Source: Enterobacteria phage P922
Direction: 5' to 3' (one strand)
Sequence record: OR999189.1
DNA length: 64,000 nt
Positions 3,473 to 52,368 of this stretch are shown here, piece by piece (positions within the stretch are counted from its first letter, which is position 1; every line of letters begins with the position of its first letter). A model generated the notes under the pieces. That model was not told the DNA's origin. It saw only the letters and a list, made by a program, of their open reading frames with translations, and made no database searches. The position numbers and the translations under genes were made by a program.

Positions 3473-4282
3473 TTAGAAACGAGATGCGACTTTCGCATAT
3501 ACACTTACAATATCTTCTGCACCAGGTGCAGCTTTATCTTCTACAGCTTCAGTGACGAAATTTAGTCCGGCTGCTTCAGTATCAGGAGTATTTATACCCT
3601 CAGTAATAGTGCTTTCATCTTTATTAGACTTCTTCACCATTTCTACGATGGCACTCAATTTATTTGAGAATTCATCTGAATAATCCATACCTTCGACCAG
3701 AGCAGAGACTTTTTCTTTTTGAGACTCAGTCAGATCTTTAGTACTTTCGCTCAATGCCACTTCACGCTGCACATAATTGATATATGCGTCACGCTTATTG
3801 AGTTCTTCGAACAGACGAGCTGATTCTTCTTTATGTTCTTGCAGCTCTTCTTCCATTTCAGCCACAACATCAACTGATTCTTCTGGAACAACAACGTTGT
3901 GTTCAACAAAGAGCTCTTTTAATCCACCAAGCATGGATTCAAACAGTTCGGCTTTGATGCCTTTATCAACTGCTAATTTATTTTCAGCGAGCCATTCTTT
4001 CGCAAGATGGTCAATGAATTTAGAAGCTTGCTCAGCAATTTTCTTCTCAGCTTTTTCTTCTGCTTCTTCTTTATTTTTTTCTACTTCTTCTTCTGCTTTT
4101 TCAGCAATTTTAGCGATATGAGATTCAGCTAATTTAACGGCGTGCTGCTTGACGGTAGCTTCGAATACAGTGCCGAAAGTTTCTTTTGCTTCCGGAGAAA
4201 TATTAACTGATTCGAAAATACTATCAAGAGCAACGGAAGCATCAATTTTTTGCGCTTCAGCAATCAGTTGTTCTTTAAGCAT
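3473..4282 (-). CDS. 22: prohead core scaffold protein gp22
   Basis: 269 aa, highly acidic coiled-coil protein between genes 21 and 23. Confidence 0.85.
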   Translation of the reverse strand: MLKEQLIAEAQKIDASVALDSIFESVNISPEAKETFGTVFEATVKQHAVKLAESHIAKIAEKAEEEVEKNKEEAEEKAEKKIAEQASKFIDHLAKEWLAENKLAVDKGIKAELFESMLGGLKELFVEHNVVVPEESVDVVAEMEEELQEHKEESARLFEELNKRDAYINYVQREVALSESTKDLTESQKEKVSALVEGMDYSDEFSNKLSAIVEMVKKSNKDESTITEGINTPDTEAAGLNFVTEAVEDKAAPGAEDIVSVYAKVASRF

Positions 4283-45379: not shown

Positions 45380-45705
45380 TGACAGATACGCAACTTTTCG
45401 AATATCTTTATTTTTCGCCAAAAACTATTAAAAATAAATTGGTGAATCATTTTGAAATTTTGGCAAATAACAACGTCTTGAGCGAATTTTATCCCAAGCA
45501 ATACAAATTACAAAAAGGTGTATTCAAAGGATGCAGAGTTTTGTGCACTGCTCCTAATGCAAGATTAATGAATAAAATTCCATATTTTACCATGGAATTT
45601 ATTGATGGACCTTTTAAAGGACTAATCACCCAAAGTTTAATGGCATATGATTCTGAGCCATTTTTAATTAAAGAACAATCTTGGATAAATTTATTTTCTA
45701 ATTGA
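45376..45705 (+). CDS. hypothetical protein
   Basis: 109 aa from ATGATG overlapping the upstream stop. Confidence 0.45.
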
Positions 45706-45713
45706 GAGGTTAT

Positions 45714-46076
45714 ATGAAAGCATACCAAATTCTTGAAGGCACACATAAAGGTACTATTTATTTTGAAGATGGTATTCAAGCACGAATTATTGTTTCTAAA
45801 ACCTTTAAAGAGGATTCTTTTGTAGACCCAGAAATTTTCTATGGTTTGCATGCCCGTGAAATTGAAATTGAAACACAACCTACAGTTAAAATCGAGGGTG
45901 GTCAACACCTGAACGTTAACGTTCTGCGTCGTGAAACTCTGGAAGATGCAGTTAAGCATCCGGAAAAATATCCGCAGCTGACCATCCGTGTATCCGGTTA
46001 TGCAGTTCGCTTTAACTCTCTGACTCCGGAACAGCAGCGCGACGTTATCGCTCGTACCTTTACTGAGAGTTTGTAA
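45714..46076 (+). CDS. autonomous glycyl radical cofactor (GrcA/YfiD-like, T4 Y06I-like)
   Basis: C-terminal about 60 aa ([60 protein letters not shown]) matches E. coli GrcA from memory, including the RVSGY glycyl radical motif. Confidence 0.8.
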
Positions 46077-46297
46077 TGGCAAAGATAATTATTGAAGGTT
46101 CTAAAGATGTGCTAAATGCTTTCGCCGAGTGGTTTAGTAATTCAGGCGAACAGCAATTTAATGAAGCATGGAACATGGGTGATATTAGTGGAATTTATCC
46201 TACGACAGAAATTTCTGTTCAGGGATATGGCATTCATGAACCTATTCGTTTAGTTGAATATGATTTGGGTACTGGTGAGGAAGTAAAATATGATTGA
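46076..46297 (+). CDS. hypothetical protein
   Basis: 73-aa ORF with ATG start, translationally coupled to neighbours. Confidence 0.45.
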   Translation: MAKIIIEGSKDVLNAFAEWFSNSGEQQFNEAWNMGDISGIYPTTEISVQGYGIHEPIRLVEYDLGTGEEVKYD

Positions 46298-46556
46298 AGA
46301 TATTAAGGGTTATAAGCCACATACTGAAGAGAAAATCGGTAAAGTGAATGCTATCAAAGATGCTGAAGTTCGTTTAGGACTTATCTTTGACGCTTTATAC
46401 GATGAATTCTGGGAAGCACTAGATAATTGCGAAGACTACGAATTCGCAAAGAATTATGCTGAAAGCCTCGATCAGCTAACTATTGCTAAAACGAAACTCA
46501 AAGAAGCCAGTATGTGGGCTTGTCGTGCTGTGTTCCAACCAGAGGAAAAATATTAA
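46290..46556 (+). CDS. hypothetical protein
   Basis: 88-aa ORF overlapping the upstream stop. Confidence 0.45.
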
Positions 46557-46836: not shown

Positions 46837-46866
46837 GTTTACTTTTCCTCTTGACTGTGGTATAAT
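46837..46866 (+). promoter_or_regulatory. early promoter for regB
   Basis: GTTTAC at 46837, TGGTATAAT ending at 46866. Confidence 0.5.
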
Positions 46867-47362: not shown

Positions 47363-47908
47363 ATGAGAAAAGCACTACTCGCTGGTCTATTGGCCATTTC
47401 AATGATGGCACATAGCTCCGAGCATACTTTCAGTAATGTCCAACTCGATAACATGCGTTACGCATATCAATTCGGGGAACAATTTTCTAAGGATGGAAAA
47501 TATAAAACACACAAAAATATCCACAAGAGTGGATTAGGTCATATAATGGCTGCTATTTTATGGCAAGAAAGCTCTGCCGGAGTTAATTTAAAATCTAAAC
47601 CAAAGCATCATGCCTATGGAATGTTCCAAAATTATTTGCCGACCATGCGAGCAAGAGTTAAGGAACTTGGTTATAATATGACCGATGCTGAAATAAAAAG
47701 AATGTTGAATAAACGGTCCAATTCAGCTTCCTGGGCGTACATTGAACTTTCTTATTGGTTAAATATACATAAGGGCGATATAAGAAAGGCAATATCCTCT
47801 TATAATTCGGGATGGAATGTTAAAGCAGGTTCTAAATATGCTTCTGAAGTCCTAGAAAAGGCTAACTACCTTAAAAATAATAAACTGTTGGAAATAGTAA
47901 ATGACTAA
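47363..47908 (+). CDS. secreted lytic-transglycosylase-like protein
   Basis: 181 aa; signal-peptide-like N-terminus (MRKALLAGLLAISMMAHS); SLT-like motifs WQESSAG, YGMFQ, SYNSGWN. Confidence 0.55.
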   Translation: MRKALLAGLLAISMMAHSSEHTFSNVQLDNMRYAYQFGEQFSKDGKYKTHKNIHKSGLGHIMAAILWQESSAGVNLKSKPKHHAYGMFQNYLPTMRARVKELGYNMTDAEIKRMLNKRSNSASWAYIELSYWLNIHKGDIRKAISSYNSGWNVKAGSKYASEVLEKANYLKNNKLLEIVND

Positions 47909-48242
47909 AATTTTGGTTTTATGTGTAGGATTAATTTCATTTTCTGCGTTAGCAAATACATCATACACTGAAATTAGAGAGTATGTAAACCGTACTGCCG
48001 CGGATTATTGTGGGAAAAATAAAGCATGCCAAGCTGAATTTGCGCAGAAATTAATATATGCATATAAAGACGGAGAAAGAGATAAATCAAGCAGATATAA
48101 AAATGATACTTTATTAAAACGATATGCTAAAAAGTGGAATACCTTAGAATGTTCAGTTGCGGAGGAGAAAGATAAAGCCGCTTGTCATTCAATGGTTGAC
48201 CGTTTGGTAGATTCTTATAATCGAGGATTGAGTACTAGATGA
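47901..48242 (+). CDS. small secreted/membrane-anchored hypothetical protein (vs-region)
   Basis: 113 aa with hydrophobic N-terminus (MTKILVLCVGLISFSALA) and several Cys. Confidence 0.5.
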   Translation: MTKILVLCVGLISFSALANTSYTEIREYVNRTAADYCGKNKACQAEFAQKLIYAYKDGERDKSSRYKNDTLLKRYAKKWNTLECSVAEEKDKAACHSMVDRLVDSYNRGLSTR

Positions 48243-48718
48243 TTGTAAAATATATCAAGGGCGATATTGTCGCCCTATTTCTTCAAGGTAATATTATTGC
48301 GCACGGATGCAACTGCTTCCACACAATGGGCTCTGGTGTAGCGGGTCAATTAGCAAGAGCCTATCCCAAAATTTTAGAAATAGATAAAACCACTACCGAA
48401 TACGGTTCTCGTGATAAATTAGGCGATATGTCTATTGTTTTTAAGCATAGTCCTACGGGATTTGGTATATGCTATAACCTGTATACGCAATACGAACCGG
48501 GTCCTAATCTTGATTATGGTGCTTTAGTAAATTGCATGATAGAATTAAATCTACAGGCAGAAACCCTTTTGTTTAAACCAGTAATTTACATTCCACGCAT
48601 AGGTTGTGGTATTGCTGGCGGTGATTGGGATAAGGTTTCTAAATTAATCGACATGTTTACTCCTGATATTGATTTAATAGTGGTGGATTATGAAAGCACA
48701 TTACCCACATCCGTTTGA
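48239..48718 (+). CDS. macro-domain-like protein (putative ADP-ribose binding/hydrolase)
   Basis: 159 aa; motifs KGDIVALF...NIIAHGCNC, MGSGVAGQLARAYP and IPRIGCGIAGGDW resemble macro domain signatures. Confidence 0.55.
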   Translation: MIVKYIKGDIVALFLQGNIIAHGCNCFHTMGSGVAGQLARAYPKILEIDKTTTEYGSRDKLGDMSIVFKHSPTGFGICYNLYTQYEPGPNLDYGALVNCMIELNLQAETLLFKPVIYIPRIGCGIAGGDWDKVSKLIDMFTPDIDLIVVDYESTLPTSV

Positions 48719-48902
48719 CCCTAAAAATAAAGTGGAAATTATTCGTCAATGGGAACGCATTTGCCGTACTAAATGCCCAATTAATAGTCTACATGATGTA
48801 GATAAAGACTACATCGGAACATTCGTTGAATATACCTTTATTGATAAGAAAGGTCGTAAACAACATGTAGAAGAATATTGCTTAAAGGTTACATGGTTAT
48901 GA
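48690..48902 (+). CDS. hypothetical protein
   Basis: 70-aa ORF with ATG start overlapping the upstream gene. Confidence 0.4.
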   Translation: MKAHYPHPFDPKNKVEIIRQWERICRTKCPINSLHDVDKDYIGTFVEYTFIDKKGRKQHVEEYCLKVTWL

Positions 48903-49084
48903 GTTTAAGTAAAGAACAAAAAGACAGACTGTTTTCTCTTATTCACGAAGTTATGGATAAAAATAGTGAATTGGAAAAAGTTTGCGATGAATGCGGTCCT
49001 TTTAATACCGACGAATACGAAGAACTGTGTAAAGATTTCGACGATAAAGAACAAGAACTTATTGATTATATAAATTCCTTATGA
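48893..49084 (+). CDS. hypothetical protein
   Basis: Track ORF starts at a TTG; first ATG gives about 63 aa; acidic, Cys-containing. Confidence 0.4.
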   Translation: MVMSLSKEQKDRLFSLIHEVMDKNSELEKVCDECGPFNTDEYEELCKDFDDKEQELIDYINSL

Positions 49085-49269
49085 TTACTCGCGAACAAAA
49101 GAATGAAATACGATTTTTAATCAGCGAAATTACTAGTTTAGAACGAGATTTATCTTTTGAATTGGCTTCGGATTATGGAGATGCTGAAACATACTACGAA
49201 TTAGTAAAATCTATCGATAAAGCTGAAAATGATTTAGAAACATATTTAGAAAATTTAACTAAGGACTAA
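49081..49269 (+). CDS. hypothetical protein
   Basis: 62-aa acidic ORF; ATGA overlap with upstream gene. Confidence 0.45.
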   Translation: MITREQKNEIRFLISEITSLERDLSFELASDYGDAETYYELVKSIDKAENDLETYLENLTKD

Positions 49270-51080: not shown

Positions 51081-51283
51081 TGATTAGTATCGAACAAGCA
51101 GATAAAATTAAAGAATTGGTAGCTTTAATTCGCAAAGCAGATGGGGAACTTAGTGACTTTGGTTGGTTTTCGTCAGGTATTGCAAATAAAGGTATTGAAG
51201 AATTTGAAGCTAAAGTTGATAATGCTGTAGAAGCTTTAGATATGTTTCTTGATGAAATTATCGATCATAATACGAGAGTTTAA
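51080..51283 (+). CDS. hypothetical protein
   Basis: Track ORF starts at a GTG; ATG at 51080 (MISIEQADK) overlaps the upstream stop (TAATG); 67 aa. Confidence 0.45.
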   Translation: MISIEQADKIKELVALIRKADGELSDFGWFSSGIANKGIEEFEAKVDNAVEALDMFLDEIIDHNTRV

Positions 51284-51285
51284 GT

Positions 51286-51480
51286 ATGCTGACACACGAA
51301 CAGTTTGAAAAAATCATTAAATTAGTACGTGATGTTGAAATAGATTCATATCAATTAGCAGTTGAGCATTGTGAAGGATATTCATACGACGGTATAGAAG
51401 CAGCTAAAAGAGATTTGGATAAATCCAAAGCTAAGTTAGTTCAATATCTTGAAATGATTAGGTGGAATAATGAAAACTGA
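51286..51480 (+). CDS. hypothetical protein
   Basis: 64-aa ORF with ATG start. Confidence 0.45.
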   Translation: MLTHEQFEKIIKLVRDVEIDSYQLAVEHCEGYSYDGIEAAKRDLDKSKAKLVQYLEMIRWNNEN

Positions 51481-51675: not shown

Positions 51676-51810
51676 AATCTTGTCAACTGCTAAGGAGAAG
51701 AGAATGAAAGTTTTGTTTGTTGTGTATGTGATGATTCAATATAATTACCCAATGTTTACTTATAATCTGGTGAACAACATTATTGATATTATTCAAAGGA
51801 GTATGTAATT

Positions 51811-52368
51811 GTGAGTGAGTCGAAGAGAATCAATATGAAACGATTAGTACTAGAAGTTAGTTCACTTTTTGGTGAATTGGCTATAGAAAAAGTAAATAAT
51901 ATGTATCGTTTGACGCAAGAAGACGATATGCTATATTTTACGCCTAGCGAAATTATTCATTTAACCCAAATTGAAAAACCTTACACTGATAAAATTGTAA
52001 GCATTAATGATGAGCATAAAATTCATTTCTATTCTTTATGCCCAGGATTTAACATTGAAAGCGAGTCAATATGCTTATCAATTAATAATTGGGATAATTT
52101 TATAACTAAAATTAAATATTTTTATTATTCTAACGAAAGAAAACATGGTTTAAAATGGTTTAAAAATTGCAATGCTATTATTACTAACGATTGCAATCAG
52201 AATGATGAAACTCTTTTAAATGTATCAAAATGTTATGAAGAGGGAGATGTCTTAACTATTCGTCAAATTGATGATTTTCGATCACATATTGTCACATTTA
52301 CCAAAGACGAAGCTATTGCGCTAAAGACTTATCTTGATTCTGTCATTCCAACTATGATTTCAAAGTGA
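51811..52368 (+). CDS. hypothetical protein, paralog pair member 1
   Basis: 185 aa, GTG start after GGAG RBS; C-terminus SKDEAIALKTYLDSVIPTMISK resembles the next ORF. Confidence 0.5.
   Translation: MSESKRINMKRLVLEVSSLFGELAIEKVNNMYRLTQEDDMLYFTPSEIIHLTQIEKPYTDKIVSINDEHKIHFYSLCPGFNIESESICLSINNWDNFITKIKYFYYSNERKHGLKWFKNCNAIITNDCNQNDETLLNVSKCYEEGDVLTIRQIDDFRSHIVTFTKDEAIALKTYLDSVIPTMISK

Follow-up and report, generated by a model that had tools for sequence, protein, structure and literature searches.

The window analyzed here is a stretch of 64,000 nucleotides from Enterobacteria phage P922 (sequence record OR999189.1), and the element in question is a single open reading frame (ORF) within it that begins with ATG and encodes a protein of 159 amino acids (coordinates are in Table 1). 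Its product is a single-domain macrodomain of the ALC1/TARG1/DarG class, as judged from sequence and a predicted structure, and its gene is the positional orthologue of T4 tk.4, because the slot between vs and tk.3 matches and the flanks are nearly identical. The fold and the orthology are both nearly certain. I propose that the protein acts like an orphan antitoxin, countering the defence system DarTG2 by hydrolyzing thymidine-linked ADP-ribose (ADPr) on phage DNA, a reading to which I give a probability of about 0.65.

The gene itself is already known. RefSeq lists the T4 version as 'phosphatase; Tk.4; contains A1pp phosphatase motif', and a role in counter-defence against DarTG2 was described in 2025. 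The original prediction, made from the letters of the window, called the product macro-domain-like and suggested that it might reverse ADP-ribosylation, including that of DNA by DarT-like toxins, without identifying tk.4. Two matters go beyond the literature. The T4-type AdfM family, judging by its aligned residues, has a lysine-free active site of a glutamine type, not a DarG-like one, and the window carries a distinct class of tk.4 allele, one of at least two strongly diverged and recombining alleles in natural T4-like phages.

The evidence that carries the proposal comes from T4. T4 lacking both adfA and adfN (a NADAR gene, 30.3) is still fully resistant to DarTG2, and for this reason a further anti-DarT factor had been predicted. 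When a T4 transposon library was grown on E. coli expressing DarTG2, tk.4 was the single hit; a clean knockout sensitized T4 to DarTG2, the gene gave no phenotype in the screen when DarTG2 was absent, and it was renamed adfM, for anti-DarT factor Macrodomain (bioRxiv 10.1101/2025.11.20.689424, November 2025). The same authors considered that AdfM removes ADP-ribose from DNA, wording this as 'it seems likely'. The screen and the knockout thus lend support, by way of the T4 orthologue, to what had been suggested about an undoing of DarT-type DNA ADP-ribosylation. The two other suggestions of the original prediction, an action on the phage's own Alt/Mod modifications and a degradation of immune signals derived from ADP-ribose, gain no support from this analysis, in which no direct test of either was made. 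Going by its place in the collinear T4 genome, adfN should lie outside the window. AdfB of phage ICP1 was considered as a further precedent and set aside, since it acts by binding DarT and has not been described as a macrodomain.

The macrodomain and its active site

The ORF contains the motifs KGDIV...NIIAHGCNC, MGSGVAGQLARAYP, and IPRIGCGIAGGDW, on which the claim of a macro-domain-like protein was based, and that claim holds up. The Pfam model Macro (PF01661) matches the protein at E=1.3e-7, scoring 32 bits where the gathering threshold is 22, over positions 2-117 of the 118 in the profile. PHROG 335 matches at E=1e-71, which together with the conserved position between vs and tk.3 places the protein within the T4 Tk.4/AdfM family. 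An AlphaFold2 model, built from an alignment of 37 homologues from which the T4 sequence was left out, has a mean predicted local distance difference test score (pLDDT) of 94.3 and a predicted template modelling score (pTM) of 0.89, and its three-layer alpha/beta/alpha arrangement is recognized as a macro fold by fold search as well. The nearest structural neighbours of the predicted model are those of the ALC1-like class (TARG1, DarG, Poa1p, SCO6735), not of the MacroD, viral, or PARG classes. The same company is found when the PDB is searched by sequence: Bt_1257 (4e-10 with the single sequence and 2e-18 with a family profile), Poa1p (1.6e-9 and 1e-14), SCO6735 (8.5e-8 and 1e-14), DarG (5e-5 and 2e-11), and TARG1 (0.01 and 1.5e-16). 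Homologues go by the labels 'phosphatase', 'Poa1p-like', and 'O-acetyl-ADP-ribose deacetylase' in GenBank, PHROG, and JGI. In other records the name given to it is 'macro domain protein', 'Poa1p-like family protein', or simply 'hypothetical protein'.

Conservation was counted over 118 aligned homologues, and in all of them H22, G23, N25, C26, G33, A35, D49, N80, Y82, Q84, P119, and W130 are invariant. The glycine-rich loop is common to the homologues, as the original prediction expected of a macro domain: G122 and G124 are present in 117 of the 118, G127 in 112, and G128 in 111. The first glycine loop, MGSGVAG, aligns with RMGAGIA of TARG1 and SWGGGIA of Poa1p. The second, PRIGCGIAGGDW, aligns with RIGCGLDRLQW of TARG1, so that A126 falls at the position of TARG1's catalytic Asp125, and the equivalent of Gly128 in SCO6735 is either G122 or G124. 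It is between these two conserved loops that ADP-ribose is predicted to bind. As a separate observation, the invariant Asp49 (48383-48385) is found also in the homologues from Vibrio phage Gary and Acinetobacter phage Liucustia, and there is no Asp in that column in Bt_1257, TARG1, or PhiKZ gp104.

In a multiple alignment the column of Q84 is occupied by Gln in Bt_1257, by the catalytic K84 in TARG1, and by K78 in the AdfM of PhiKZ, and the profile alignment to TARG1 likewise sets Q84 on K84. It is also the position of the essential Gln85 of SCO6735 and the catalytic K80 of DarG. The equivalence to K80 was drawn through TARG1 K84 and PhiKZ gp104 K78 (aligned with MAFFT) and through a published structural superposition (PMC9411070). 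The column of N25 holds Asn27 of SCO6735, Asn22 of DarG, and Asn23 of PhiKZ AdfM, by alignment and from the literature, and the functional importance of that Asn has been described (PMC9411070, PMC13309987).

SCO6735 serves as the precedent for the chemistry (PMC9411070). It and Bt_1257, which are 54% identical, make up a subclass of the ALC1-like macrodomains in which Gln85 stands where DarG has Lys80 and TARG1 has Lys84. Replacement of that residue (Q85A, Q85E) kills the enzyme, and N27S nearly does. SCO6735 cleaves DNA carrying the thymidine-ADPr made by DarT faster than does DarG or TARG1, it rescues cells from DarT toxicity, and it also inhibits DarT by binding. A water molecule positioned by the backbone is proposed as nucleophile. 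ADPr linked to guanosine, to a 5'-phosphate, or to the 2'-OH of RNA is not cleaved by SCO6735. The 'mobile loop' of SCO6735, five residues longer than that of DarG and TARG1 and bearing Lys89 and Lys94, is tied by the authors to processivity on DNA.

Two alleles of tk.4 and the spread of the family

The protein of the window is only 58% identical to T4 Tk.4 (E=1e-70; 159 versus 155 amino acids). The divergence is confined to a cassette (Table 1): in sliding profiles the flanks are 93-100% identical to T4, and identity recovers at the start of tk.3. In the second glycine loop it is the window allele, with GIAGGDW, that is closer to the family consensus GIAGGDW than is T4, with GIGKGNW. Escherichia phage vB_EcoM_SCS4 provides a natural chimera (positions 1501-1968 of locus L003). 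Its tk.4 is 94% identical to that of T4 overall; residues 1-50 are exactly those of the window allele, whereas residues 51-155 are of the T4 type, placing the breakpoint near window position 48,385. The two allele classes therefore recombine within the gene. The window type, at 90% identity or more, is found in 318 phage records, and the T4 type in 224, plus 159 at 80-90%.

One might go further and suppose that the allele classes are functionally different, directed at another variant of DarT2 through direct binding of the toxin or at another ADPr linkage, and that the whole phage family took its lysine-free Gln/water mechanism from housekeeping macrodomains of the Gln type, not from a captured DarG. 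I consider this combination improbable. If it were true, then 'AdfM' activity would have arisen in phages a second time, independently.

Elsewhere in the window, two more short patches rich in insertions and deletions are diverged from T4 (51107-51286 and 51767-51946; 72-80% identity with 15-21 gap columns). Both lie in the region of small mobD.x genes, the rest of which is 90-99% identical to T4.

The protein database contains 794 homologues at E<=1e-3, and matches occur in 2,859 of 50,697 phage records, from phages of many host genera; Salmonella phage F13076 has an annotated protein with exactly the same sequence. By E-value ranks the phage family is nearer to Bt_1257, TARG1, and Poa1p than to DarG. 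At the one cellular locus considered, that of Pelagimonas P0094, no DarT was found next to the family member, whose neighbours are a bactofilin and a peptidase. This single example and the E-value ranks, which are not a phylogeny, hint at an origin of T4-type AdfM other than capture from an operon for DarTG2.

More distant homologues, at 35-40% identity, keep different company. Those in Vibrio phage Gary (positions 3504-3980 of locus L005) and Acinetobacter phage Liucustia (positions 3501-3974 of locus L006) retain Q84 and N25, and possess a long loop like that of Bt_1257. Their genes abut those for ribose-phosphate pyrophosphokinase and nicotinamide phosphoribosyltransferase, either running into the end of one or sitting between the two, and stop codons overlap start codons at the junctions. 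The same neighbourhood thus appears in two unrelated phage lineages, and it may signify a link between the macrodomain family and phage NAD+ salvage. A homologue in a Streptomyces phage adjoins a Sir2 gene.

A proposed role and its rivals

The proposal can be put as a series of steps. The protein would be made early in infection, from the regB-tk block of genes. In a host that carries DarTG2, DarT2 would be released and would ADP-ribosylate thymidines in single-stranded DNA, blocking replication of the phage. The macrodomain would bind thymidine-attached ADP-ribose on single-stranded DNA between its two glycine loops and hydrolyze the N-glycosidic bond between thymidine and ribose. Gln84, held by Asn25, would position the distal ribose for attack by a water molecule bound to the backbone, with no catalytic lysine, so that the chemistry would resemble that of SCO6735 rather than that of DarG. 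Hydrolysis would restore the DNA and lift the block to replication. In T4-type DNA the cytosines are protected by glucosyl-hydroxymethylation and the thymidines are unmodified. It is this that would make an eraser necessary. Weak matches to DarG models in NCBIfam and PADLOC were counted in support of an action against DarT, as were the closer fit of the window allele's second loop to the family consensus and the biochemical removal of DarT2 marks by a different phage macrodomain, PhiKZ gp104 (PMC13309987).

Several considerations weigh against the proposal. In the Tk.4 family a role against DarT is known from genetics on the T4 orthologue, not from enzymology. At 58% identity to the T4 allele, the specificity or the activity of the window allele could differ. 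The protein has neither the catalytic Lys of DarG nor its C-terminal DarT-binding domain, and it is without the Lys-containing extension of 5-6 residues in the 'mobile loop'. The homologues of 35-40% identity that are paired with NAD-salvage genes hint that some members of the family, at least, act on a metabolite. Finally, the case for early expression consists of a match to a consensus promoter. That the window allele does the same job as that of T4, that it is a catalyst, that it works through Gln and water, and that it is expressed early are all things that I infer.

What else might the protein do? It is unlikely, though not negligibly so, that its main substrate is a soluble derivative of ADP-ribose (ADPr-1''-phosphate, O-acetyl-ADPr, an immune signal, or a toxin) or that it feeds ADP-ribose back into NAD+ salvage. 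Such a role would suit the names given in databases (phosphatase, Poa1p-like, O-acetyl-ADP-ribose deacetylase), the strong similarity to Poa1p, an argument in the literature that the usual targets of phage Macro domains are soluble derivatives of ADPr, and the homologues of Gary and Liucustia, with Q84 and N25 intact beside genes of NAD salvage. The names, however, are labels derived from the domain, not functions that were tested, and F152 of Poa1p is Ala126 in the window protein. The homologues linked to NAD salvage have the long loop and belong to other phage families, and their context may not transfer. T4 infection presumably offers no source of ADPr-1''-phosphate, because the junctions that Pnk/Rnl produce in repairing RNA carry no 2'-phosphate, and the only experiment on an orthologue yielded a phenotype specific to DarTG2 in T4. 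Distinctly unlikely is a protein that inhibits DarT2 stoichiometrically, using its ADP-ribose pocket for recognition and not for turnover. The dead Q85A mutant of SCO6735 does still inhibit DarT, and to a greater degree than inactive DarG or TARG1 (PMC9411070), the phage anti-DarT factors AdfA and AdfB bind directly, and the fast turnover of tk.4 alleles would fit a protein-protein interface engaged in an arms race. It is too much to expect of a pure binder, however, that every residue essential for catalysis in SCO6735 should be invariant in 118 homologues. The DarT-binding domain at the C-terminus of DarG is missing as well. A hydrolase would work whatever the sequence of the toxin, whereas binding would leave it unexplained that phages with very different hosts conserve the protein.

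The DarTG2 reading also does better than one in which the protein reverses some other macromolecular ADP-ribosylation: the phage's own protein marks made by Alt, ModA, and ModB, RNAylation, or the product of a host system that targets RNA, such as CmdTAC. T4-like phages do encode three ADP-ribosyltransferases, and enzymes of the TARG1 class can act on both protein and nucleic-acid substrates. Alt and Mod, though, modify arginine, and macrodomains of the ALC1/TARG1/DarG class are not known to cleave arginine-linked ADPr; reversal of Alt/Mod marks is for that reason unlikely. CmdTAC is robust against T4 despite T4's tk.4, SCO6735, which has the closest characterized type of active site, was inactive on the RNA substrates tried, and the T4 screen gave no tk.4 phenotype without DarTG2. 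Taken together, a role of this kind would be quite surprising. There is, last, hardly any likelihood that the window allele is a decayed or inactive variant. Inactive alleles of anti-DarT factors (AdfA, AdfB) have been reported in phages, but this reading frame is intact, all 16 family-invariant residues are present, the structure model is confident, and the allele class (90% identity or more) is found in those 318 phage records, against 224 of the T4 class.

Many bacteria defend themselves against phages with DarT toxins, which ADP-ribosylate DNA, and T-even phages now seem to have a separate eraser for each chemistry: AdfN (30.3), a NADAR protein, for marks on guanosine and AdfM (tk.4), a macrodomain, for those on thymidine. 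The gene in the window takes its place in this scheme, and the database label 'phosphatase' is misleading. The basic picture is left unchanged by the Gln-type site and the diverged alleles. They matter, rather, for predicting which therapeutic or environmental T4-like phages overcome strains with DarTG2, and it is in the lysine-free active site and in the diverged, recombining alleles that the remaining interest lies.

Neighbouring genes and related systems

The window belongs to a Tequatrovirus. Over 2.6 kb around the ORF, identity to many Tequatrovirus genomes, those of Salmonella phage F13076 and Escherichia phage vB_EcoM_HZ_ZJUN4 among them, is 97-99%, and the region is collinear with the reverse strand of T4 from 57.5 to 64.5 kb, at an overall identity of 92.6%. 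By the T4 annotation, the order on the + strand is vs.6, vs.5, vs.4, vs.3, regB, vs.1, vs, the ORF, tk.3, tk.2, tk.1, tk, rI.1, rI, and rI.-1, and the genes from regB through tk are all co-oriented and tightly packed. That the start codon of tk.4 overlaps the stop codon of vs suggests translational coupling of the two genes.

Table 1. Location of the tk.4 orthologue of phage P922, its conserved motifs, and associated features (window coordinates)
Feature	Position	Strand	Remarks
tk.4/adfM orthologue, stand-alone macrodomain protein, 159 aa	48239..48718	+	stop codon included
vs stop/tk.4 start overlap, ATGA	48239..48242	+	TGA 48240-48242, ATG 48239-48241
H22-G23-C24-N25-C26 motif	48302..48316	+	H22, G23, N25, C26 118/118
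M30-G36, MGSGVAG, first glycine loop, at the position of the macrodomain phosphate-binding loop	48326..48346	+	G33, A35 118/118; M30 115/118
N80-L-Y-T-Q84	48476..48490	+	N80, Y82, Q84 118/118
P119-W130, PRIGCGIAGGDW, second glycine-rich loop	48593..48628	+	P119, W130 118/118; G122, G124 117/118
tk.4 3' end/tk.3 (DUF7202) start overlap	48690..48718	+	29 nt
Allele cassette diverged from T4	~48,260..48,720		37-75% nt identity in 60-nt windows
Candidate sigma-70-type promoter, TTTACT-17-TATAAT with TG, upstream of regB	46838..46866	+	consensus scan only

With low confidence, the sigma-70-like site upstream of regB may be taken as the start of a transcription unit regB-vs.1-vs-tk.4-...-tk; promoter-like sites in the region are fewer than expected from shuffled sequence. 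Within the first 40 nt of tk.4 (codons K7-L13) there is a perfect GC-rich hairpin, AGGGCGATATTGTCGCCCT (48258-48276, + strand), with a T-rich tail behind it; the stem-loop is identical in T4 and sits just ahead of the point of divergence of the alleles. Terminator-like sites in the region are not clearly more numerous than shuffled sequence would lead one to expect.

An ORF of 88 amino acids at the position of T4 vs.4 (46290-46556, + strand) matches the Pfam family Acb2_Tad1_hairpin (PF24729) at E=9e-20 and, by this match, appears to encode Acb2, a nucleotide sponge of the anti-CBASS/Thoeris type. It lies 1.7 kb upstream of tk.4, which would put two counter-defence genes in one early gene block. 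The position of T4 vs.6, annotated in T4 as the autonomous glycyl-radical cofactor GrcA, is held by an ORF of 124 amino acids (45702-46076, + strand). The ORF at the vs.1 position (47363-47908, + strand; 181 amino acids) has a predicted signal-like hydrophobic stretch at its N-terminus and matches the SLT lytic transglycosylase domain with 23.4 bits, barely over the Pfam threshold of 21.3. Downstream, the ORFs at the tk.2 and tk.1 positions (48878-49084 and 49081-49269, + strand) both match DUF7438 (E=4e-19 and 6e-14) and are thus tandem paralogues. The stretch of SCS4 that corresponds to about 48,880-49,250 gives a poor alignment, and its annotation shows three small genes in place of two.

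How does the protein compare with systems that have names? T4 Tk.4/AdfM (NP_049723) shares with it the slot between vs and tk.3, the single domain, the invariant residues, and the first 14 residues, which are identical. The two differ in the second loop (GAGIGKGNW in T4, GCGIAGGDW in the window) and at the C-terminus, which is longer in the window protein and overlaps tk.3.

SCO6735 (5E3B) and Bt_1257 (2FG1, 2AFC) resemble the phage protein in having Gln at the column of the catalytic Lys, Asn27 at that of N25, and the conserved Gly of the loop, though they are only 25-30% identical to it. Opposite 'HGIYKDSKGLP' of Bt_1257 there is a six-residue gap in the window protein, leaving it a loop of the length found in DarG and TARG1. 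SCO6735, moreover, is a cellular protein reported to be induced by DNA damage, not a viral counter-defence. TARG1/OARD1 (4J5S) and Poa1p (6LFQ) share the fold and the layout of motifs (KGD..., H-x-C/I-x, MGxG, PRIGCG...W). However, the Lys84/Asp125 dyad of TARG1, whose substrate is ADPr on Glu or Asp of proteins, has become Gln84/Ala126. Of the residues probed in Poa1p, whose substrate is ADPr-1''-phosphate, His23 has its counterpart in His22, Ser30 is aligned with Thr29, and Phe152 is replaced by Ala126.

DarG (5M3I, 5M31/5M3E, 7OMU) is different in having Lys80 (in the T. aquaticus protein), a C-terminal domain that binds DarT, and darT for a neighbour. The window protein scores 27.7 bits with the DarG model of NCBIfam (NF048014), far below the equivalog cutoff of 250 and over positions 2-142 of 338 in the profile; it has no second domain, and no darT lies beside its gene, the neighbours being vs and tk.3 (DUF7202). 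The AdfM of chimalliviruses (PhiKZ gp104; Cell Reports, PMC13309987) is likewise a stand-alone phage macrodomain that counters DarTG2, and it was given the same name independently. It is about 21% identical to the window protein, with no significant full-length BLASTP alignment, it is of the Lys type (N23/K78), it is imported into the phage nucleus, and its biochemistry has been demonstrated. By sequence, then, the two proteins named AdfM are separate lineages of one fold class.

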